Shown here piece by piece: positions 1-50,296 of a stretch of 64,000 bases of DNA (position 1 is its first letter; the number at the start of each line of letters is the position of its first letter). The notes below the pieces were generated by a model, which made no database searches, had not been told where the DNA came from, and worked only from the letters and a program-made list of their open reading frames with translations. The DNA lies in NCBI RefSeq assembly GCF_051903065.1, contig NZ_CP178438.1; one strand, 5' to 3'. Source of the stretch: Escherichia coli. GTDB lineage: Bacteria > Pseudomonadota > Gammaproteobacteria > Enterobacterales > Enterobacteriaceae. The position numbers and the translations under genes were made by a program.

Positions 1-1631
1 GCCGGAACATTGTCACACGGTTGCTCTTTCGGGCAGATCAAATCCAGCATTTTCAGCGTCACGCCATTGGTCCAGCCAAAGCCATCCTGTAATGGATATT
101 CGCCACCGCCGCCCCCCGTTCCGGTGGTGCTGACATCATACTTTTCCACCAGCTTTTTCTCCCGGTCATAGGTGTGCTGAACATTGGTCAGGAATTGCCA
201 GCTAATGTCCATCGCCACCTCTTTTTGCCCGTAGTTTTGTAATCCTTCTGTCGCGACCCACTGCAACGGTGCCCAGCCATTTGGCGCATCCCATTGTTGC
301 CCACTTTTCACCGACGTGGTGTTCAGGCCGCCGGGTTGTAGCAGATGTGTTTTCGTCGCCGTCGCCATTTTGTTGGCGCGATCTTTCGCTGCCGCATTGA
401 CGTATAGTGGGAACAGGGCGGCAGCGGTTAACTGATTGCGCACTTTATGACTTTTCAGGTCGTAATCGGCATACCAGCCTTGTTGATCGTTCCACAGGTA
501 TTTTTCGATCCCTTTTTGACGGGCATTTGCCAGCGTTTCGTACTGGTTTGCCATCGCGTTATCTCCGGCAGCTTTGCTGGCGCGGGCAAGGATTTTTTCC
601 ATTTTGAACATCAGGCTGTTCAGATCGACCGGTACGATGCTGGTGGTGCGTAAGGTATTTAGTTGCTGCGGATTGTCCATCCAGCGCGAGCTGAAATCCC
701 AGCCAGACGCAGCAGCAGAGCGCAGGTCGCGGTAAATTTCAGTGGCAGGTCGATTCGGATTGCTTTTAGCGGTGGCAATATCTTCCACCCATGACTCTGG
801 TCGTGGCGTATCGCGATCGTCCCAGTAGCGGTTGAGAAGGGTACCATCCTGAAGTTTTACAACGCGTTTTTCCTGTTGTCCGGCTTGCAGGTTTTCAACA
901 CCGTCCATCCAGTAAGCATATTCTTTTTGCATTTGCGGCAGGTATTGCTTCAACGCGGCATCGCCTTCATGCTGCGCCAGTAACTCTACCATCAGGGCAA
1001 AGAAGGGCGGCTGCGAGCGGCTTAAATAGTAACTGCGGTTGCCGTTGGGAATATGACCGTAAGTGTCTATTTCATGAGCAAAATTGGCCACCATATCCGC
1101 GACTTTATCCCAGTGACCGCTTTCGGCAAGTCCTAACATGGTGAAGTAACTGTCCCAGTAATATACCTCGCGAAAACGTCCGCCCGGCACGACATAAGGT
1201 TCCGGCAGCGGTAACAGAGAATCCCATTTTTCGGTGTTTTCGGTAGAACGCGTTAATACCGGCCAAAGTCCGTCAATATGTTCGCGCAGTGACTGTCCCT
1301 CTGGCGGAACATATTTCTCGCCCTCTGTCGGCAGGGTGAAATTGACGTTAACGAAATGGCGCAGATCAAATCCGCTCTGGTTTTGCTGCATCCGATAATC
1401 AGCAAGGATCATCAGCGGATCGCTGTTCGGCACGGCATCGGCAAAGGTTTTTTGGTCCGGAAAAAGTTTGGCGTTTTGCACATCATTAAACAGCGGCCCT
1501 AATAAAATATCAGGCGGCTGTGGCGTTACCGGTGTTTCTTCTGCCTGCACCGATAGCGCAGCGAAACACAAAAAGATGCAGGCTGGAATTAACGCCATTT
1601 TTTGCGGGCGAGAAGGTGCGGGGGATTTCAT
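1..1631 (-). CDS. treA: periplasmic trehalase TreA; 3' end of the gene lies beyond the window start
   Basis: Minus-strand frame opens at ATG 1629-1631 and translates [30 protein letters not shown] (signal peptide), staying open to position 1. C-terminal region seen at window start (..[32 protein letters not shown]). Not in ORF track because it is truncated. Confidence 0.9.
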
Positions 1632-19358: not shown

Positions 19359-20441
19359 ATGAAGCCTTCTATCGTTGCCAAACTGGAAGCCCTGCATGAA
19401 CGCCATGAAGAAGTTCAGGCGTTGCTGGGTGACGCGCAAACTATCGCCGACCAGGAACGTTTTCGCGCATTATCACGCGAATATGCGCAGTTAAGTGATG
19501 TTTCGCGCTGTTTTACCGACTGGCAACAGGTTCAGGAAGATATCGAAACCGCACAGATGATGCTCGACGATCCTGAAATGCGTGAGATGGCGCAGGATGA
19601 ACTGCGCGAAGCTAAAGAAAAAAGCGAGCAACTGGAACAGCAATTACAGGTTCTGTTACTGCCAAAAGATCCTGATGACGAACGTAACGCCTTCCTCGAA
19701 GTCCGAGCCGGAACCGGCGGCGACGAAGCGGCGCTGTTCGCAGGCGATCTGTTCCGTATGTACAGCCGTTACGCCGAAGCCCGCCGCTGGCGGGTAGAAA
19801 TCATGAGCGCCAGCGAGGGTGAACATGGTGGTTATAAAGAGATCATCGCCAAAATTAGCGGTGATGGTGTGTATGGTCGTCTGAAATTTGAATCCGGCGG
19901 TCATCGCGTGCAGCGTGTTCCTGCTACGGAATCGCAGGGTCGTATTCATACTTCTGCTTGTACCGTTGCGGTAATGCCAGAACTGCCTGACGCAGAACTG
20001 CCGGACATCAACCCAGCAGATTTACGCATTGATACTTTCCGCTCGTCAGGGGCGGGTGGTCAGCACGTTAACACCACCGATTCGGCAATTCGTATTACTC
20101 ACTTGCCGACCGGGATTGTTGTTGAATGTCAGGACGAACGTTCACAACATAAAAACAAAGCGAAGGCGCTTTCAGTGCTCGGTGCTCGCATCCACGCTGC
20201 TGAAATGGCAAAACGCCAACAGGCCGAAGCGTCTACCCGTCGTAACCTGCTGGGGAGTGGCGATCGCAGCGACCGTAACCGTACTTACAACTTCCCGCAG
20301 GGGCGCGTTACCGATCACCGCATCAACCTGACGCTCTACCGCCTGGATGAAGTGATAGAAGGTAAGCTGGATATGCTGATTGAACCGATTATCCAGGAAC
20401 ATCAGGCCGACCAACTGGCGGCGTTGTCCGAGCAGGAATAA
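19359..20441 (+). CDS. prfA: peptide chain release factor 1
   Basis: 360-aa ORF containing the GGQ motif (..[15 protein letters not shown]..). Confidence 0.97.
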
Positions 20442-21274
20442 TGGAATATCAACACTGGTTACGTGAAGCAATAAGCCAACTTCAGGCGAGCGAAAGCCCG
20501 CGGCGTGATGCTGAAATCCTGCTGGAGCATGTTACCGGCAGAGGGCGTACTTTTATTCTCGCCTTTGGTGAAACGCAGCTGACTGACGAACAATGTCAGC
20601 AACTTGATGCGCTACTGACACGTCGTCGCGATGGTGAACCCATTGCTCATTTAACCGGGGTGCGAGAATTCTGGTCGTTGCCGTTATTTGTTTCGCCAGC
20701 GACCTTAATTCCGCGCCCGGATACGGAGTGTCTGGTGGAGCAGGCACTGGCGCGGTTGCCTGAACAACCTTGCCGTATTCTCGATCTCGGGACGGGTACC
20801 GGGGCGATTGCGCTTGCGCTGGCTAGCGAGCGCCCGGACTGCGAAATTATCGCTGTAGATCGTATGCCTGATGCTGTCTCCCTGGCACAACGTAATGCCC
20901 AGCATCTGGCGATCAAAAATATCCACATTCTGCAAAGCGACTGGTTTAGCGCGCTAGCCGGGCAGCAGTTTGCGATGATTGTCAGCAATCCGCCGTATAT
21001 TGACGAGCAGGACCCACATCTTCAACAAGGCGATGTCCGCTTTGAGCCGCTCACTGCGCTGGTTGCGGCAGACAGTGGAATGGCAGACATCGTGCATATC
21101 ATCGAACAGTCGCGTAACGCGCTGGTATCCGGCGGCTTTCTGCTTCTGGAACATGGCTGGCAGCAGGGCGAAGCGGTGCGACAGGCATTTATCCTCGCGG
21201 GGTATCATGACGTCGAAACCTGCCGTGACTATGGTGATAACGAGCGCGTAACGCTCGGCCGCTATTATCAATGA
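20441..21274 (+). CDS. prmC: release-factor glutamine N5-methyltransferase PrmC (HemK)
   Basis: 277-aa ORF with NPPY motif (IVSNPPYI); ATG overlaps prfA stop (TAATG). Confidence 0.95.
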   Translation: MEYQHWLREAISQLQASESPRRDAEILLEHVTGRGRTFILAFGETQLTDEQCQQLDALLTRRRDGEPIAHLTGVREFWSLPLFVSPATLIPRPDTECLVEQALARLPEQPCRILDLGTGTGAIALALASERPDCEIIAVDRMPDAVSLAQRNAQHLAIKNIHILQSDWFSALAGQQFAMIVSNPPYIDEQDPHLQQGDVRFEPLTALVAADSGMADIVHIIEQSRNALVSGGFLLLEHGWQQGEAVRQAFILAGYHDVETCRDYGDNERVTLGRYYQ

Positions 21275-23417: not shown

Positions 23418-23513
23418 ATGGGTGCCGGATACAAAAAGGGCCGCAGGCTGTTACCCCTGCGGCCGGTTTCGGGCGCATATTGCCATCACGGCAGCCTGAC
23501 GCCCGTTTTCATC

Positions 23514-23621
23514 TTACTTCCGGTTACGCCACCAGCTGACAATCGCTGCGGTAATAATTCCCGCCAGGATCGGTGCTGCCAGGTCGTGCCAGAAAATCAT
23601 GGCAAACTGCGCGAGCGTCAT
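23514..23621 (-). CDS. ldrA: type I toxin Ldr (35-aa membrane peptide), copy 1
   Basis: Minus-strand ATG..TAA translating MTLAQFAMIFWHDLAAPILAGIITAAIVSWWRNRK; followed on the minus strand by hairpin GGCCGCAGG..CCTGCGGCC plus U-run (23430-23464). Confidence 0.9.
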   Translation of the reverse strand: MTLAQFAMIFWHDLAAPILAGIITAAIVSWWRNRK

Positions 23622-23668
23622 ATAGCCGCCTTGTTGTAATGACAACATTTTGCGGCTATTCTTGAATT

Positions 23669-23736
23669 GTTGATGGTTCAAGATTAGCCCCCGTTCTGTT
23701 GTCAGGTTTTACCTCTCAACGTGCGGGGGTTTTCTC
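23669..23736 (+). ncRNA. rdlA: Rdl antisense RNA (antitoxin), copy 1; ends approximate
   Basis: Plus-strand promoter-like TTGTAA-17bp-TATTCT (23634-23662), then about 66 nt ending in hairpin GCCCCCG..CGGGGG plus TTTTCTCTTT (23687-23740). Lies in the ldr leader on the opposite strand. Placement inferred from sequence; not confirmed against a reference. Confidence 0.45.
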
Positions 23737-24049
23737 TTTCCAGCAACCAATGCCACCAGGGATAAAGCCCCCGCAACATTGCGCCTCACCGGATAACGCC
23801 GGCTTGGTGTGGATACTACGACTCAATTCATCTTCACTTCATCCCTGAAATGTTTGCAATGAAGAGTGCATTCCGGTTTTTCAACAGCTGTTACAGTCGT
23901 TTCATGAGTGCTCTGGATGATGCTTCCAGCTCGGGTTGCCAATATTTACTTGTGGAAGTGATAAAGACAAAAATGGCCGCAGGCTGTTACCCCTGCGGCC
24001 GGTTTCGGGCGCATATTGCCATCACGGCAGCCTGACGCCCGTTTTCACC

Positions 24050-24157
24050 TTACTTCCGGTTACGCCACCAGCTGACAATCGCTGCGGTAATAATTCCCGC
24101 CAGGATCGGTGCTGCCAGGTCGTGCCAGAAAATCATGGCAAACTGCGCGAGCGTCAT
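24050..24157 (-). CDS. ldrB: type I toxin Ldr, copy 2 (identical peptide to copy 1)
   Basis: Same 108-nt ORF 536 bp downstream of copy 1. Confidence 0.9.
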   Translation of the reverse strand: MTLAQFAMIFWHDLAAPILAGIITAAIVSWWRNRK

Positions 24158-24204
24158 ATAGCCGCCTTGTTGTAATGACAACATTTTGCGGCTATTCTTG
24201 AATT

Positions 24205-24272
24205 GTTGATGGTTCAAGATTAGCCCCCGTTCTGTTGTCAGGTTTTACCTCTCAACGTGCGGGGGTTTTCTC
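24205..24272 (+). ncRNA. rdlB: Rdl antisense RNA, copy 2; ends approximate
   Basis: Same promoter and terminator arrangement, shifted 536 bp. Confidence 0.45.
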
Positions 24273-24585
24273 TTTCCAGCAACCAATGCCACCAGGGATA
24301 AAGCCCCCGCAACATTGCGCCTCACCGGATAACGCCGGCTTGGTGTGGATACTACGACTCAATTCATCTTCACTTCATCCCTGAAATGTTTGCAATGAAG
24401 AGTGCATTCCGGTTTTTCAACAGCTGTTACAGTCGTTTCATGAGTGCTCTGGATGATGCTTCCAGCTCGGGTTGCCAATATTTACTTGTGGAAGTGATAA
24501 AGACAAAAATGGCCGCAGGCTGTTACCCCTGCGGCCGGTTTCGGGCGCATATTGCCATCACGGCAGCCTGACGCCCGTTTTCACC

Positions 24586-24693
24586 TTACTTCCGGTTACG
24601 CCACCAGCCGACAATCGCTGCGGTAATAATTCCCGCCAGGATCGGTGCCGCCAGGTCGTGCCAGAAAGTCATGGCAAACTGCGCGAGCGTCAT
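24586..24693 (-). CDS. ldrC: type I toxin Ldr, copy 3 (variant peptide)
   Basis: Translates MTLAQFAMTFWHDLAAPILAGIITAAIVGWWRNRK; differs from copies 1 and 2 at two residues (I9T, S29G). Confidence 0.9.
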   Translation of the reverse strand: MTLAQFAMTFWHDLAAPILAGIITAAIVGWWRNRK

Positions 24694-24740
24694 ATAGCCG
24701 CCTTGTTGTAATGACAACATTTTGCGGCTATTCTTGAAGT

Positions 24741-24808
24741 GTCTGGTTTCAAGATTAGCCCCCGTTTTGTTGTCAGGTTTTACCTCTCAACGTGCGGGGG
24801 TTTTCTCT
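24741..24808 (+). ncRNA. rdlC: Rdl antisense RNA, copy 3; ends approximate, 5' region diverged
   Basis: Terminator hairpin conserved (AGCCCCCG..CGGGGG + TTTTCTCTTT) but the upstream 20 bp differ from copies 1 and 2 (GAAGTGTCTGGTTTCAAG versus GAATTGTTGATGGTTCAAG). Confidence 0.4.
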
Positions 24809-25097
24809 TTCCAGCAACCAATGCCACCAGGGATAAAGCCCCCGCAACATTGCGCCTCACCGGATAACGCCGGCTTGGTGTGGATACTACGTCTCAATTC
24901 ATCTTCACTTCATCCCTGAAATGTTTGCAATAAAGAGTACATTCCGGCTTTTCAACAGCTGTTGCAGTGGTTTCGTGCAGGTTGTGGTACAGGCTCGCAA
25001 TTCTGATTAACGACCTGTCCAGGTAGTATGAAGAAATACAATAAGCAGGAATTTATATTATCTCCCCCGATTTCCGTCATCGGAGGAGATATAACTG

Positions 25098-26198: not shown

Positions 26199-26467
26199 TA
26201 TGGTTATCCCTTTGCAGATGAATTTATCGAAAATGTAAAAAATAGGTAGGAAAAATAACAGAAAGTGTCTGGATATCGGTAACATTTTACGAATTTTTAC
26301 CCCGTTGTCGATTTTTTACTCATTGGGGCATAAAAATAAGTAATACGTTTAGACAATGTTTGTTTTAGCGTTTCTTAAGAACAGTCTGACATGAAAATTC
26401 TTATGTTTTGGCAAGAGTAGATATTGTTGACCACACTTAATGTTCAACTTTGTAAAAGGAGTCAACG

Positions 26468-26698
26468 ATGCCGTATAAAACGAAAAGCGACCTGCCGGAA
26501 AGCGTAAAGCACGTTCTACCGTCTCATGCCCAGGATATCTATAAAGAAGCGTTCAACAGCGCATGGGATCAATATAAAGATAAAGAAGATCGGCGTGATG
26601 ACGCCAGTCGCGAAGAAACCGCGCATAAAGTGGCCTGGGCTGCTGTGAAGCATGAATATGCCAAAGGGGATGATGATAAATGGCATAAAAAATCGTAA
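26468..26698 (+). CDS. chaB: cation-transport regulator ChaB
   Basis: 76-aa ORF MPYKTKSDLPESVKHVLPSHAQDIYKEAF. Confidence 0.93.
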   Translation: MPYKTKSDLPESVKHVLPSHAQDIYKEAFNSAWDQYKDKEDRRDDASREETAHKVAWAAVKHEYAKGDDDKWHKKS

Positions 26699-32306: not shown

Positions 32307-33698
32307 ATGAGTCACTCATCCGCCCCCGAAAGGGCTACTGGAGCTGTCATTACAGATTGGCGACCGGAAGATCCTGCGTTCTGGCAACAACGCGGTCAAC
32401 GTATTGCCAGCCGCAACCTGTGGATTTCCGTTCCCTGTCTGCTGCTGGCGTTTTGCGTATGGATGTTGTTCAGCGCTGTTGCGGTGAACTTACCGAAAGT
32501 CGGTTTTAATTTTACGACCGATCAGCTATTTATGTTGACTGCGCTGCCTTCGGTTTCTGGCGCGTTATTACGTGTTCCATACTCCTTTATGGTTCCTATC
32601 TTCGGTGGTCGTCGCTGGACGGCGTTCAGCACCGGTATTCTGATTATTCCTTGCGTCTGGCTGGGGTTTGCCGTGCAGGATACCTCCACGCCTTATAGCG
32701 TCTTCATCATCATCTCTCTGCTGTGCGGCTTTGCTGGCGCGAACTTCGCTTCCAGTATGGCAAACATCAGCTTCTTCTTTCCGAAACAGAAGCAGGGTGG
32801 CGCGCTGGGTCTGAATGGTGGTCTGGGCAACATGGGCGTCAGCGTCATGCAGTTGGTTGCTCCGCTGGTGGTATCACTGTCGATTTTCGCAGTATTTGGT
32901 AGCCAGGGCGTCAAACAGCCGGATGGGACTGAGCTGTATCTGGCGAATGCGTCCTGGATATGGGTGCCGTTCCTTGCCATCTTCACCATTGCGGCGTGGT
33001 TTGGCATGAACGATCTTGCTACCTCGAAAGCCTCCATCAAGGAGCAGTTGCCGGTACTCAAACGGGGTCATCTGTGGATTATGAGCCTGCTGTATCTGGC
33101 AACCTTCGGCTCCTTTATCGGCTTCTCCGCGGGCTTTGCGATGCTGTCAAAAACGCAGTTCCCGGATGTTCAGATTCTGCAATACGCTTTCTTCGGGCCG
33201 TTTATTGGTGCGCTGGCGCGTTCTGCAGGTGGTGCATTATCTGACCGTCTGGGCGGAACTCGTGTCACGCTGGTGAACTTTATTCTGATGGCGATTTTCA
33301 GCGGCCTGCTGTTCCTGACCTTACCGACTGACGGGCAGGGCGGAAGCTTCATGGCGTTCTTCGCGGTCTTCCTGGCGCTGTTCCTGACAGCTGGGCTGGG
33401 TAGTGGTTCCACTTTCCAGATGATTTCAGTGATCTTCCGTAAACTGACAATGGATCGCGTGAAAGCAGAAGGGGGGTCTGACGAACGTGCGATGCGTGAA
33501 GCGGCAACCGACACGGCGGCGGCGTTGGGTTTCATCTCTGCGATTGGCGCGATTGGTGGCTTCTTTATCCCGAAAGCGTTCGGTAGCTCGCTGGCATTAA
33601 CGGGTTCGCCAGTCGGCGCAATGAAAGTATTTTTGATTTTCTATATCGCCTGCGTAGTGATTACCTGGGCGGTATATGGTCGGCATTCTAAAAAATAA
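32307..33698 (+). CDS. narK: nitrate/nitrite antiporter NarK (MFS)
   Basis: ORF 32301..33698; start set to MSHSSAPERATGAVITDWRPEDPAFW (463 aa). Confidence 0.95.
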   Translation: MSHSSAPERATGAVITDWRPEDPAFWQQRGQRIASRNLWISVPCLLLAFCVWMLFSAVAVNLPKVGFNFTTDQLFMLTALPSVSGALLRVPYSFMVPIFGGRRWTAFSTGILIIPCVWLGFAVQDTSTPYSVFIIISLLCGFAGANFASSMANISFFFPKQKQGGALGLNGGLGNMGVSVMQLVAPLVVSLSIFAVFGSQGVKQPDGTELYLANASWIWVPFLAIFTIAAWFGMNDLATSKASIKEQLPVLKRGHLWIMSLLYLATFGSFIGFSAGFAMLSKTQFPDVQILQYAFFGPFIGALARSAGGALSDRLGGTRVTLVNFILMAIFSGLLFLTLPTDGQGGSFMAFFAVFLALFLTAGLGSGSTFQMISVIFRKLTMDRVKAEGGSDERAMREAATDTAAALGFISAIGAIGGFFIPKAFGSSLALTGSPVGAMKVFLIFYIACVVITWAVYGRHSKK

Positions 33699-33720
33699 AT
33701 CTTAATATTTGATTATCCTT

Positions 33721-33747
33721 TGCGCGGCATGATGTCGCGCTTTTTTT
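33721..33747 (+). terminator. narK intrinsic terminator
   Basis: Hairpin GCGCGGCATGATGTCGCGC followed by T7. Confidence 0.6.
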
Positions 33748-33858
33748 ATACGTTATTTAGTTACAACATACTAATGTTATATAGCTTATTTCGCCGGATT
33801 TCAGGTGATGCTGCCAACTTACTGATTTAGTGTATGATGGTGTTTTTGAGGTGCTCCA

Positions 33859-34134
33859 GTGGCTTCTGTTTCTATCAGCTGTCCCTCCTGTTCAGCTACT
33901 GACGGGGTGGTGCGTAACGGCAAAAGCACCGCCGGACATCAGCGCTATCTCTGCTCTCACTGCCGTAAAACATGGCAACTGCAGTTCACTTACACCGCTT
34001 CTCAACCCGGTACGCACCAGAAAATCATTGATATGGCCATGAATGGCGTTGGATGCCGGGCAACAGCCCGCATTATGGGCGTTGGCCTCAACACGATTTT
34101 ACGTCACTTAAAAAACTCAGGCCGCAGTCGGTAA
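33859..34134 (+). CDS. insA: IS1 InsA (DNA-binding regulator/transposase N-terminal part)
   Basis: 91-aa [43 protein letters not shown] (zinc-finger-like). Confidence 0.95.
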
Positions 34135-34556
34135 CCTCGCGCATACAGCCGGGCAGTGACGTCATCGTCTGCGCGGAAATGGACGAACAGTGGGGCTATG
34201 TCGGGGCTAAATCGCGCCAGCGCTGGCTGTTTTACGCGTATGACAGGCTCCGGAAGACGGTTGTTGCGCACGTATTCGGTGAACGCACTATGGCGACGCT
34301 GGGGCGTCTTATGAGCCTGCTGTCACCCTTTGACGTGGTGATATGGATGACGGATGGCTGGCCGCTGTATGAATCCCGCCTGAAGGGAAAGCTGCACGTA
34401 ATCAGCAAGCGATATACGCAGCGAATTGAGCGGCATAACCTGAATCTGAGGCAGCACCTGGCACGGCTGGGACGGAAGTCGCTGTCGTTCTCAAAATCGG
34501 TGGAGCTGCATGACAAAGTCATCGGGCATTATCTGAACATAAAACACTATCAATAA
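34053..34556 (+). CDS. insB: IS1 InsB frame (expressed as an InsAB' fusion by -1 frameshift)
   Basis: 167-aa ORF in the -1 frame overlapping the insA 3' end; ..[22 protein letters not shown].. Confidence 0.9.
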
Positions 34557-34598
34557 GTTGGAGTCATTACCGGATTTCATTAAGAGCCATTAATATGT

Positions 34599-34628
34599 TA
34601 CCCATGGGGAATACTCCTTAATACCCAT
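34599..34628 (+). promoter_or_regulatory. NarL heptamer cluster of the narG upstream activating region
   Basis: TACCCAT (34599-34605), TACTCCT (34612-34618), TACCCAT (34622-34628) fit the TACYYMT consensus; roughly 180-210 bp upstream of the inferred narG transcription start. Confidence 0.6.
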
Positions 34629-34761
34629 TTGCATAAAAATCTTAATAGTTTAAATAGCTACAGGTATAAAACGTCTTAATTTACAGCATGTTATGCTGTA
34701 ACTGTTAATTATCCTAAAGGGGTATCTTAGGAATTTACTTTATTTTTCATCCCCATCACTC

Positions 34762-34775
34762 TTGATCGTTATCAA
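34762..34775 (+). promoter_or_regulatory. FNR box TTGAT-CGTT-ATCAA of the narG promoter
   Basis: Perfect FNR consensus about 90 bp upstream of the narG ATG. Confidence 0.75.
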
Positions 34776-34866
34776 TTCCCACGCTGTTTCAGAGCGTTAC
34801 CTTGCCCTTAAACATTAGCAATGTCGATTTATCAGAGGGCCGACAGGCTCCCACAGGAGAAAACCG

Positions 34867-37800
34867 ATGAGTAAATTCCTGGACCGGTTTCGCTACTTCA
34901 AACAGAAGGGTGAAACCTTTGCCGATGGGCATGGCCAGCTTCTCAATACCAACCGTGACTGGGAGGATGGATATCGCCAGCGTTGGCAGCATGACAAAAT
35001 CGTCCGCTCTACCCACGGGGTAAACTGCACCGGCTCCTGCAGCTGGAAAATCTACGTCAAAAACGGTCTGGTCACCTGGGAAACCCAGCAGACTGACTAT
35101 CCGCGTACCCGTCCGGATCTGCCAAACCATGAACCTCGCGGCTGCCCGCGCGGTGCCAGCTACTCCTGGTATCTTTACAGTGCCAACCGCCTGAAATACC
35201 CGATGATGCGCAAACGCCTGATGAAAATGTGGCGTGAAGCGAAGGCGCTGCATAGCGATCCGGTTGAGGCATGGGCTTCTATCATTGAAGACGCCGATAA
35301 AGCGAAAAGCTTTAAGCAGGCGCGTGGACGCGGTGGTTTTGTTCGTTCTTCCTGGCAGGAGGTGAACGAACTGATCGCCGCATCTAACGTTTACACCATC
35401 AAAAACTACGGCCCGGACCGTGTTGCTGGTTTCTCGCCAATTCCGGCAATGTCGATGGTTTCTTACGCATCGGGTGCACGCTATCTCTCGCTGATTGGCG
35501 GTACTTGCTTAAGCTTCTACGACTGGTACTGCGACCTGCCTCCTGCGTCTCCGCAAACCTGGGGCGAGCAAACTGACGTACCGGAATCTGCTGACTGGTA
35601 CAACTCCAGCTACATCATCGCCTGGGGTTCAAACGTGCCGCAGACGCGTACCCCGGATGCTCACTTCTTTACTGAAGTGCGTTACAAAGGGACCAAAACT
35701 GTTGCCGTCACGCCGGACTACGCTGAAATCGCCAAACTGTGCGATCTGTGGCTGGCACCGAAACAGGGCACCGATGCGGCAATGGCGCTGGCAATGGGCC
35801 ACGTAATGCTGCGTGAATTCCACCTCGATAACCCAAGCCAGTATTTCACCGACTATGTGCGTCGCTACACCGACATGCCGATGCTGGTGATGCTGGAAGA
35901 ACGCGACGGTTACTACGCTGCGGGTCGTATGCTGCGCGCTGCTGATCTGGTGGATGCGCTGGGTCAGGAAAACAATCCGGAATGGAAAACTGTCGCCTTT
36001 AATACCAATGGCGAAATGGTTGCGCCGAACGGTTCTATTGGCTTCCGCTGGGGCGAGAAGGGCAAATGGAATCTTGAGCAGCGCGACGGCAAAACTGGCG
36101 AAGAAACCGAGCTGCAACTGAGCCTGCTGGGTAGCCAGGATGAGATCGCTGAGGTGGGCTTCCCGTACTTTGGTGGCGACGGCACGGAACACTTCAACAA
36201 AGTGGAACTGGAAAACGTGCTCCTGCACAAGCTGCCGGTGAAACGCCTGCAACTGGCTGACGGCAGCACCGCTCTGGTGACCACCGTTTACGATCTGACG
36301 CTGGCAAACTACGGTCTGGAACGTGGCCTGAACGACGTTAACTGTGCAACCAGCTATGACGATGTGAAAGCTTATACCCCGGCCTGGGCCGAGCAGATTA
36401 CCGGCGTTTCTCGCAGCCAGATTATTCGCATCGCCCGTGAATTTGCCGATAACGCTGATAAAACGCACGGTCGTTCGATGATTATCGTCGGTGCGGGGCT
36501 GAACCACTGGTATCACCTCGATATGAACTATCGTGGTCTGATCAACATGCTGATTTTCTGCGGCTGTGTCGGTCAGAGCGGGGGCGGCTGGGCGCACTAT
36601 GTAGGTCAGGAAAAACTGCGTCCGCAAACCGGCTGGCAGCCGCTGGCGTTTGCCCTTGACTGGCAGCGTCCGGCGCGTCACATGAACAGCACTTCTTATT
36701 TCTATAACCACTCCAGCCAGTGGCGTTATGAAACCGTCACGGCGGAAGAGTTGTTGTCACCGATGGCGGATAAATCCCGTTATACCGGACACCTGATCGA
36801 CTTTAACGTCCGTGCGGAACGCATGGGCTGGCTGCCGTCTGCACCGCAGTTAGGCACTAACCCGCTGACTATCGCTGGCGAAGCGGAAAAAGCCGGGATG
36901 AATCCGGTGGACTATACGGTGAAATCCCTGAAAGAGGGTTCCATCCGTTTTGCGGCAGAACAACCAGAAAACGGTAAAAACCACCCGCGCAACCTGTTCA
37001 TCTGGCGTTCTAACCTGCTCGGTTCTTCCGGTAAAGGTCATGAGTTTATGCTCAAGTACCTGCTGGGGACGGAGCACGGTATCCAGGGTAAAGATCTGGG
37101 GCAGCAGGGCGGCGTGAAGCCGGAAGAAGTGGACTGGCAGGACAATGGTCTGGAAGGCAAGCTGGATCTGGTGGTTACGCTGGACTTCCGTCTGTCGAGC
37201 ACCTGTCTCTATTCCGACATCATTTTGCCGACGGCGACCTGGTACGAAAAAGACGACATGAATACATCGGATATGCATCCGTTTATTCACCCGCTGTCTG
37301 CGGCGGTCGATCCGGCCTGGGAAGCGAAAAGCGACTGGGAAATCTACAAAGCCATCGCGAAGAAATTCTCCGAAGTGTGCGTCGGCCATCTGGGTAAAGA
37401 AACCGACATCGTCACGCTGCCTATCCAGCACGACTCTGCCGCTGAACTGGCGCAGCCGCTGGATGTGAAAGATTGGAAAAAAGGCGAATGCGACCTGATC
37501 CCAGGCAAAACTGCACCGCACATTATGGTCGTAGAGCGCGATTATCCAGCGACTTACGAACGCTTTACCTCTATCGGCCCGCTGATGGAGAAAATCGGTA
37601 ATGGCGGTAAAGGGATTGCATGGAACACCCAGAGCGAGATGGATCTGCTGCGTAAGCTCAACTACACCAAAGCGGAAGGTCCGGCGAAAGGCCAGCCGAT
37701 GCTGAACACCGCAATTGATGCGGCAGAGATGATCCTGACGCTGGCACCGGAAACCAACGGTCAGGTAGCCGTGAAAGCCTGGGCTGCCCTGAGCGAGTTT

Positions 37801-41675: not shown

Positions 41676-41712
41676 GCTCGGAGTAACAGGTTTTGAGTAT
41701 TTCAGGAAGTAA

Positions 41713-41882
41713 TGGTGGTGGGGGAAGGATTACTAGCGCTTCGCCCTTCGGGTCGTTGCCTGCGGCAACGCTTTCTCGCTGGCGCTCGAGTCGAACCTTA
41801 GTCGAAGCTTCTCATCCTTCCCCGCTTGGGCAGAATATTTAATTACGGATTCGTTTGAGAGTTCAGGGACTTTTGAAAGTGA
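41713..41882 (-). repeat. tyrT-operon 3' repeat unit (rtT/tpr region), ending in a 19-nt copy of the tRNA-Tyr 3' end
   Basis: TGGTGGTGGGGGAAGGATT at 41713-41731 repeats the tRNA 3' end about 170 bp downstream of tyrV; only about one unit is present here. Confidence 0.6.
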
Positions 41883-41967
<85 letters not shown>

Positions 41968-42001
41968 AGGGGTAATTCAAATTTCGAGGTAATGCTTGAG
42001 A

Positions 42002-42086
<85 letters not shown>

Positions 42087-42135
42087 ACGGGGTAATGCTT
42101 TTTACTGGCCTGCTCCCTTATCGGGAAGCGGGGCG

Positions 42136-48870: not shown

Positions 48871-50296
48871 TAATGCCGATCAGTTAAGGATCAGTTGACC
48901 GATCCAGTGGCTGTGTAAGAATCCGGAAACGCTCACTCGTTTCCGGATTTTTTTATGCACATTGGACAGGCTCTTGATCTGGTATCCCGTTACGATTCTC
49001 TGCGTAACCCACTGACTTCTCTGGGGGATTACCTCGACCCCGAACTCATCTCTCGTTGCCTTGCCGAATCAGGTACTGTAACGCTACGCAAGCGCCGTCT
49101 TCCCCTCGAAATGATGGTCTGGTGTATTGTTGGCATGGCGCTTGAGCGTAAAGAACCTCTTCACCAGATTGTGAATCGCCTGGACATCATGCTGCCGGGC
49201 AATCGCCCCTTCGTTGCCCCCAGTGCTGTTATTCAGGCCCGCCAGCGCCTGGGAAGTGAGGCTGTCCGCCGCGTGTTCACGAAAACAGCGCAGCTCTGGC
49301 ATAACGCCACGCCGCATCCGCACTGGTGCGGCCTGACCCTGCTGGCCATCGATGGTGTGTTCTGGCGCACACCGGATACACCAGAGAACGATGCAGCCTT
49401 CCCTCGCCAGACACATGCCGGGACCCCGGCGCTCTACCCGCAGGTCAAAATGGTCTGCCAGATGGAACTGACCAGCCATCTGCTGACGGCTGCAGCCTTC
49501 GGCACGATGAAGAACAGCGAAAATGAGCTTGCTGAGCAACTTATAGAACAAACCGGCGATAACACTCTGACGTTAATGGATAAAGGTTATTACTCACTGG
49601 GATTGTTAAATGCCTGGAGCCTGGCGGGAGAACACCGCCACTGGATGATCCCTCTCAGAAAGGGAGCTCAATATGAAGAGATCAGAAAACTGGGTAAAGG
49701 CGATCATCTGGTGAAGCTGAAAACCAGCCCGCAGGCACGAAAAAAGTGGCCGGGACTGGGAAATGAGGTGACAGCCCGCCTGCTGACCGTGACGCGCAAA
49801 GGAAAAGTCTGCCATCTGCTGACGTCGATGACGGACGCCATGCGCTTCCCCGGAGGAGAAATGGCGGATCTGTACAGTCATCGCTGGGAAATCGAACTGG
49901 GATACAGGGAGATAAAACAGACGATGCAACTGAGCAGGCTGACGCTGAGAAGTAAAAAGCCTGAGCTTGTGGAGCAAGAGCTGTGGGGTGTCTTACTGGC
50001 TTATAATCTGGTGAGATATCAGATGATTAAAATGGCGGAACATCTGAAAGGTTACTGGCCAAATCAACTGAGCTTCTCAGAATCATGCGGAATGGTGATG
50101 AGAATGCTGATGACATTGCAGGGCGCTTCACCGGGACGTATACCGGAGCTGATGCGCGATCTTGCAAGTATGGGACAACTTGTGAAATTACCGACAAGAA
50201 GGGAAAGGGCCTTCCCGAGAGTGGTAAAGGAGAGGCCCTGGAAATACCCCACAGCCCCGAAAAAGAGCCAGTCAGTTGCTTAACTGACTGGCATTA
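48871..50296 (+). mobile_element. IS4 insertion sequence (1426 bp), intact
   Basis: 18-bp imperfect terminal inverted repeats TAATGCCGATCAGTTAAG (48871-48888) and CTTAACTGACTGGCATTA (50279-50296); flanked by 12-bp direct repeat CCCCAGAAGGGG (48859-48870 and 50297-50308); contains a 442-aa transposase ORF. Confidence 0.92.
48955..50283 (+). CDS. insG: IS4 transposase (DDE family)
   Basis: 442-aa [43 protein letters not shown]..., recognised as the IS4 transposase. Confidence 0.9.

Follow-up and report, generated by a model that had tools for sequence, protein, structure and literature searches.

An IS1A-type insertion in the narK-narG spacer of a rare Escherichia coli clone, probably neutral or nearly so for nitrate reductase regulation

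An IS1 element stands between narK and the nitrate reductase operon narGHJI in the 64,000-nucleotide stretch of Escherichia coli DNA analyzed here (hereafter the window), which raises the question of whether the element affects nitrate reductase regulation or occupies a spacer without consequence. A literature search on IS1 at narG found no relevant paper. Judged from the sequence, the element is very probably an ordinary, lineage-specific IS1 that would be neutral, or nearly so, for nitrate reductase regulation. It is a new site for a common insertion sequence in an IS-rich clone and not a new kind of thing, and RefSeq already annotates the same insertion in three genomes. The element and its parts are located as follows.

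33804-34571, plus strand: IS1 of the IS1A type, 768 bp, read from the sequence, with a left end that is single-copy in the window
33804-33826, plus strand: IRL, the left terminal inverted repeat (repeat finder pair I1), where the element's own promoter is located
34549-34571, plus strand: IRR, the right terminal inverted repeat (repeat finder pair I1 and sequence)
33859-34134, plus strand: insA, an open reading frame of 91 aa matching NF050000 (Zn-binding domain) and positions 1-81 of NF033558
34053-34556, plus strand: the insB frame, 167 aa, the catalytic part of InsAB', matching positions 75-199 of NF033558 (E=1.8e-42)
34110-34116, plus strand: A6C slippery motif (motif search) for the -1 programmed frameshift to the InsAB' transposase
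33796-33803, unstranded: left copy of the target duplication GGATTTCA (sequence and repeat finder)
34572-34579, unstranded: right copy of the target duplication GGATTTCA, at -238 to -231 of narG (sequence and repeat finder)

In the sequence read from 33600 to 35000, the element starts with GGTGATGCTGCCAACTTACTGATTTAGTG and extends between the termini GGTGATGCTGCCAACTTACTGAT...AAGTTGGAGTCATTACC in the same orientation as narK and narG. The terminal inverted repeats are imperfect and about 23 bp long (GGTGATGCTGCCAACTTACTGAT / GGTAATGACTCCAACTTATTGAT), which together with the length of about 768 bp is characteristic of the IS1 family. Alignment with IS1A of MG1655 gave near-identity to the reference (767 of 768 nt, the lone change being G versus T at position 444), and both termini were identical to those of the MG1655 element. 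RefSeq labels the identical sequence in the genomes 23CRST027 and ECNB21-M121 as 'IS1-like element IS1A family transposase, programmed frameshift'. The left end of IS1 occurs once in the 64-kb window, against zero occurrences expected by chance, and a search for a second IS1 copy across the same 64 kb found none.

The coding content is likewise that of IS1, consisting of insA, an overlapping insB' frame and an A6C -1 frameshift signal. Profile searches matched both open reading frames to NCBIfam NF033558 (IS1 family transposase) and insA also to the IS1/IS1595 zinc-binding domain (NF050000), and translation with a -1 shift at A6C (34110) led to an open InsAB' frame of 232 aa. The insA product is a zinc-finger and helix-turn-helix repressor, and the IS1 promoter is weak and repressed by InsA. 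As far as can be read from the DNA, all sequence requirements for transposition are intact in this copy. The first-pass annotation had described a complete 768-bp IS1 with canonical termini and intact insA and insB, flanked by a direct repeat, and this description was borne out: the length is exactly 768 bp, both reading frames are open, the InsAB' frame is uninterrupted, and GGATTTCA stands on both sides. A mismatch of the termini to IS1, which it had named as grounds for abandoning the assignment, did not arise, and its coordinates of 33796-34579 comprise IS1 plus both copies of the target repeat.

The raw direct repeat returned by the repeat finder is 10 bp long (CCGGATTTCA, D7), appearing so because IS1's own end is CC, and the true duplication is 8 bp, in line with the 8 or 9 bp that are normal for IS1 (PMC12428005). 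The empty site with a single GGATTTCA is found in SCU-316, whose spacer is 100% identical, and in K-12. The added length relative to the empty site of SCU-316 is 776 bp, equal to 768 + 8, and the single GGATTTCA in these IS1-free spacers therefore indicates that the insertion added 776 bp.

To define the distribution of the insertion, 33650-34750 was used as a megablast query against 5,426 complete E. coli genomes. The exact insertion was present in at least 3 of the 5,426, namely ECNB21-M121 (meat, China) and 23CRST027 and 23CRST031 (human faeces, Ecuador); in this survey of complete genomes the carrier counts are lower bounds, alignments being taken up to 40 pieces per record, a number reached in 416 IS1-rich records. 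Over 41 kb, ECNB21-M121 differed from the window by 10 mismatches, 23CRST027 by 1 (plus 1 gap) and 23CRST031 by 1, versus a divergence of 1-1.8% over the same comparison for LR-24, an unrelated carrier of IS1 in this spacer. A 1,426-bp interval with an IS4 transposase gene, at about 48871-50296 of the window between tdk and adhE, is common to the window clone and the three carriers, and LR-24 and SCU-316 lack it. Alignment of LR-24 gives an overlap of about 12 bp at the IS4 junction, which would fit a target duplication. The 1-10 mismatches per 41 kb and the shared IS4 therefore place the window and the three genomes in one clone that inherited the insertion by descent, with the tdk-adhE IS4 as a second marker of this clone.

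A complementary query with the 392-bp empty site (narK stop to narG ATG, without IS1) met no interruption in 5,408 of 5,415 genomes, MG1655 and DH1 among them. Accordingly, the BLASTN check over E. coli genomes that had been proposed, run here as megablast, gave a rare insertion that is not in all references; K-12 MG1655 indeed has no IS1 at this site, and the expectation of a strain-specific insertion held, being confined among the carriers of the exact insertion to one clone with the window. More precisely, the insertion would be called clone-specific rather than strain-specific. It could serve as a clone marker, with a 1.2-kb versus a 0.4-kb PCR product over narK-narG, for a rare lineage from Chinese meat and Ecuadorian human faeces. 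The narL, narX and narK products have the same WP accessions in LR-24, and the nar proteins are the same in carriers and non-carriers. That isolates from two continents retain the insertion speaks against its being strongly costly.

IS1 occupies 28-37 places on each carrier chromosome (median per genome, 11), a number that suggests recent activity of the IS1 family. Such a multicopy state is also the setting in which an assembler might misplace an IS1 repeat, but both junctions are clean, the 8-bp duplication is perfect, and the same structure recurs in three complete genomes that were sequenced independently and come from two countries, leaving an assembly artefact exceedingly improbable. In 23CRST031 (L006, 20210-20906) the IS1 copy is 1 nt short and labelled a frameshifted pseudogene, owing either to genuine decay or to faulty assembly. 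Further variation was observed elsewhere in the window. Three tandem repeats of about 535 bp at 23431-24974, each with an Ldr-family type I toxin gene (the ldr locus), show slight sequence differences among clone members. The tyrT-rtT region is also polymorphic (about 41700-42100 of the window versus 28010-28922 of L007), the window clone having one rtT repeat, with two tRNA-Tyr genes, versus four annotated in LR-24.

Whether the insertion could matter for narGHJI depends on its position relative to the elements on either side of it, of which the following were located.

33722-33747, plus strand: intrinsic terminator of narK, an 8-pair stem (6 of the pairs GC) at 33722-33740 followed by a T7 run, upstream of IS1 and undisturbed
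34599-34628, plus strand: NarL heptamers TACCCAT, TACTCCT and TACCCAT read from the sequence, centred at -208, -196 and -185, intact
34762-34775, plus strand: FNR box TTGATcgttATCAA of the narG promoter read from the sequence, centred at -41.5

The stop codon of narK is at 33698 and the ATG of narG at 34867. IS1 starts 56 bp past the T-run of the narK terminator, which ends at 33747, and ends 296 bp before the narG ATG, both distances from the first-pass annotation holding on re-measurement. Setting the centre of the FNR box at -41.5 would place the narG start (+1) at 34810, and under this assignment the NarL heptamers, including AGGGGTA at 34718-34724 (centre -89), agree with the published -195 and -89 regions, where NarL-P footprints were reported on narG (PMC4549865). 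The right end of IS1 then lies at about -239, 27 bp upstream of the first NarL heptamer. The full-length narG promoter fragment in use covers -223 to +70, and its upstream segment alone gives strong nitrate induction (PMC9314961); IS1 is therefore just outside everything known as needed. The sequence from -223 to +70 is unbroken in the window and contains the FNR box at -41.5 as well as NarL heptamers at both the -195 and the -89 region. Alignment showed that the heptamers and the FNR box, which had been described as intact, have the same sequence as in K-12.

The IHF-site region of narG (34681-34701) is a perfect palindrome with a 9-bp stem in the window, TTACAGCATGTTATGCTGTAA, versus TTACAGTCTGTTATGTGGTGG in K-12, from which it differs at 7 clustered positions. 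This palindrome is a natural allele present in about 325 records (at least 99% identity over 106 nt), including O157:H7 ATCC 43894, and most genomes have the K-12-type region.

On the narK side, the small RNA NarS is the narK 3'UTR up to the terminator (PMC7038943), and since it ends upstream of IS1, it is untouched. An Rfam scan of 33000-35000 found no RNA gene disrupted by IS1; NarS has no Rfam model. The L20-leader match in that scan (25 bits versus a gathering score of 58.7) is sub-threshold and was rejected as spurious. A repeat-like insert of about 123 bp directly follows the narK stop, in the narK 3'UTR/NarS region, in K-12 (DH1) and LR-24, and it is absent from the window clone and SCU-316 (window 33699-33704 versus 2873-3000 of L002 and 473-600 of L014). 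This insert may be ERIC-like. An insertion near the narK stop codon in E. coli was noted in the NarS study (PMC7038943). The DH1 record (L014) lists narG as a pseudogene interrupted by an internal stop.

Considering that the known cis elements are contiguous and intact, the insertion is most likely neutral or near-neutral. The competing explanation, that IS1 changes narGHJI expression and that the change was selected, is improbable. It might operate by three routes: read-out from IS1 or a hybrid promoter, IHF-bound bent DNA at the NarL -200 cluster, and insulation from narK read-through. Read-out would be favored by the co-directional arrangement of IS1 and narG, by the absence of a terminator between insB and the narG control region (terminator scan and sequence), and by an outward-facing -35-like TTGGAG at 34558-34563 within IRR. 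For a hybrid promoter to form, a -10 must stand at the right spacing from the -35 of the IS1 end. The junction candidate is TTGGAG-17-TAAGAG, in which the -10 is poor and without the final T; the hexamers 16-18 bp from TTGGAG (TTAAGA, TAAGAG and AAGAGC) match TATAAT at no more than 3 of 6 positions, none with the final T. A consensus scan of 33600-34900 detected neither an outward nor a hybrid promoter at the right-hand junction, the sole promoter-like site in this interval being CTGCCA-16-TATGAT at 33811-33838, which is directed inward and is IS1's own. An IS-created hybrid promoter, combining a -35 in the IS end with a flanking -10 at 16-18 bp, was rejected as a candidate, and a usable one is not expected at the IS1-narG junction from its sequence. 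The earlier suggestion of outward transcription or altered topology is consequently unsupported, considering this poor junction and the position of IS1 upstream of the -223 to +70 functional fragment.

Two subtler influences may be considered. The narG promoter requires IHF to loop the -200 NarL sites, and IHF is also bound by the ends of IS1. An IHF-binding, bent IS1 end 27 bp upstream of the NarL -200 cluster could therefore have a modest architectural effect on narG. In addition, weak transcripts from the IS1 promoter, being co-directional, could enter the narG control region, and the narK terminator upstream should limit read-through into insA. The binding of IHF to IS1 ends and the outward -35 they carry, located in the inverted repeat, were described previously (PMC12428005, PMC8764528), and the context of IS1A behind the rpsT terminator reportedly restricts the activation of transposition by read-through (PMC12428005). 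The outcome of a same-orientation upstream IS1 in ST131 varied with the gene, afaA being up, osmB down and ugd unchanged (PMC8764528).

The first-pass annotation was right that an IS1 is present between narK and narG and missed its recurrence, with at least six independent IS1 events in the spacer. Chimeric queries composed of 1 kb of narK, IS1 in either orientation and 1 kb of narG, which recover IS1 anywhere between the two genes, identified at least 5 genomes with forward and at least 3 with reverse IS1. Junction mapping resolved these into at least six independent events in the 392-bp spacer, three forward and three reverse, listed here by empty-site position (position 1 is the first base past the narK stop).

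66-74, minus strand: P276M, duplication CAACATACT
98-105, plus strand: window clone, duplication GGATTTCA
98-106, minus strand: EC2641, duplication GGATTTCAT, the same target as in the window clone
108-116, minus strand: MEC2025-PR, duplication AAGAGCCAT
114-121, plus strand: LR-24, duplication CATTAATA
240-248, plus strand: FDAARGOS_943, duplication CTAAAGGGG, at -96 to -88 of narG

The other IS1 copies share 98.6-99.7% identity with that of the window, and these sequence differences indicate independent events. The five other insertions thus involve the same IS1 family and the same 392-bp spacer as the window. EC2641 carries its IS1 at the target of the window clone in the opposite orientation, MEC2025-PR and LR-24 carry theirs 10 and 16 bp farther downstream, the elements of EC2641, MEC2025-PR and P276M are reversed relative to the window, and most of the five left 9-bp duplications. 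Coverage of the spacer fell below 80% in seven genomes, exactly the IS1 carriers except P276M, whose insertion lies near the edge; therefore, every central-spacer interruption among the 5,415 genomes is IS1.

All the independent insertions but one keep the NarL, IHF and FNR elements contiguous. The exception is FDAARGOS_943, in which IS1 (L008, 3749-4516; equivalent to window 34714-34722) stands between the NarL -200 cluster with the IHF region on one side and the FNR box with the core promoter on the other. This insertion retains the -89 heptamer, and its junction TTGGAG-17-TATCTT is a plausible candidate hybrid promoter. By its position and junction, the FDAARGOS_943 insertion would be far more likely than that of the window to change narG regulation.

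The recurrence bears on both the selective explanation and another one, in which local DNA sequence or structure sets a preferred IS1 target. Four of the six starts fall within 17 bp (P of about 0.004 for a uniform null over 392 bp), and two events share a start (P of about 0.04 for the same null). This clustering may reflect a true local hot-spot or selection. An intrinsic hot-spot would also be consistent with the double use of the target GGATTTCA/GGATTTCAT by different IS1 variants in opposite orientations, with the AT content of the spacer (64% versus 50% for the window), and with the fact that IS1 alone, of all insertion sequences, accounts for the seven central-spacer interruptions among 5,415 genomes. 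However, five of the six events lie inside a gap of about 65 bp, from the narK terminator to the first NarL heptamer, that is free of known elements, and when the null was restricted to this gap, the clustering gave P of about 0.18 and the shared start P of about 0.15. The clustering is unremarkable once so restricted, and no special targeting mechanism need be invoked. Moreover, the most AT-rich part of the spacer (76-84%, 34619-34655) contains no IS1 insertions.

At the level of the region, at least 8 carrier genomes compare with about 5 expected per 392 bp under a uniform distribution of 64,347 chromosomal IS1 places. Control spacers taken from the window were interrupted in 0 (narX-narK), 1 (adhE-ychT) and 10 (chaA-chaB) genomes. 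A region-level hot-spot or region-level selection was rejected, the count being near expectation and within the control range of 0-10. The chaA-chaB spacer (window 26200-26468, 269 bp) is interrupted or partly missing in 10 of 5,423 genomes, more than narK-narG. With no regional excess, an intrinsic hot-spot is a rather doubtful reading; it is nevertheless compatible with an ordinary, near-neutral insertion, since it addresses why IS1 landed here and not what effect it has.

Selection for altered expression could likewise draw on a spacer hit at least six times independently, four of them within 24 bp and with an identical target once. Against it, the three forward and three reverse events fit poorly with an orientation-dependent promoter effect and argue against its selection, the regional count lies near expectation and inside the range of the control spacers, and each insertion is limited to one genome or clone without a sweep. 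A stronger version, in which IS1 insertions next to the NarL -200 cluster were recurrently selected for retuning narGHJI expression, is very improbable. If true, the retuning would act via the IHF-binding IS1 end or through upstream sites isolated from narK, and it would be an advantage for certain gut or food-chain clones in nitrate-rich niches. More generally, an insertion that altered nitrate reductase expression would count as natural variation in the regulation of a trait tied to gut fitness, and there is no pointer to that here.

For the favored explanation, an ordinary and near-neutral insertion, the following course is proposed. The InsAB' transposase of an IS1A-type copy would have inserted the element into the AT-rich, element-free narK-narG spacer, leaving the 8-bp duplication. 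This would have happened once, before the members of a rare and IS1-rich E. coli clone diverged, and the clone has inherited the insertion since. The narK terminator with NarS on one side, and the NarL -200 cluster, IHF region, NarL -89 site, FNR box and core promoter on the other, have stayed contiguous and intact. IS1 presumably reaches the spacer at an ordinary rate, and insertions would persist mainly where nothing is broken. We infer that purifying selection limits the survival of insertions to free spacer and that the phenotype of the narK-narG IS1 is near-neutral. The element would then be one more case of IS1 in a dispensable, AT-rich spacer and matter little. The five of six events in the 65-bp gap amount to a natural 'insertion footprint', in accord with the experimental upstream limit of the narG promoter at about -223.

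IS1-generated hybrid promoters were reportedly described by Prentki et al. in 1986. As in the afaA case of ST131 (PMC8764528), an outward TTGGAG in the window faces a co-directional downstream operon; unlike such hybrid promoters, the window junction is without an acceptable -10 and lies 230 bp upstream of the native start. The closest counterpart among the systems compared is IS1A of MG1655 (19796-20563, insA1/insB1), which has the same 768-bp length, termini, insA, insB and A6C site as the window copy. The MG1655 element is situated in the nhaR-rpsT region, whereas the window copy is in the narK-narG spacer with one substitution (position 444) and an 8-bp duplication. Both elements share a comparable setting, IS1A of MG1655 standing downstream of the rpsT terminator and the IS1 of the window likewise just past an intrinsic terminator in the same orientation.
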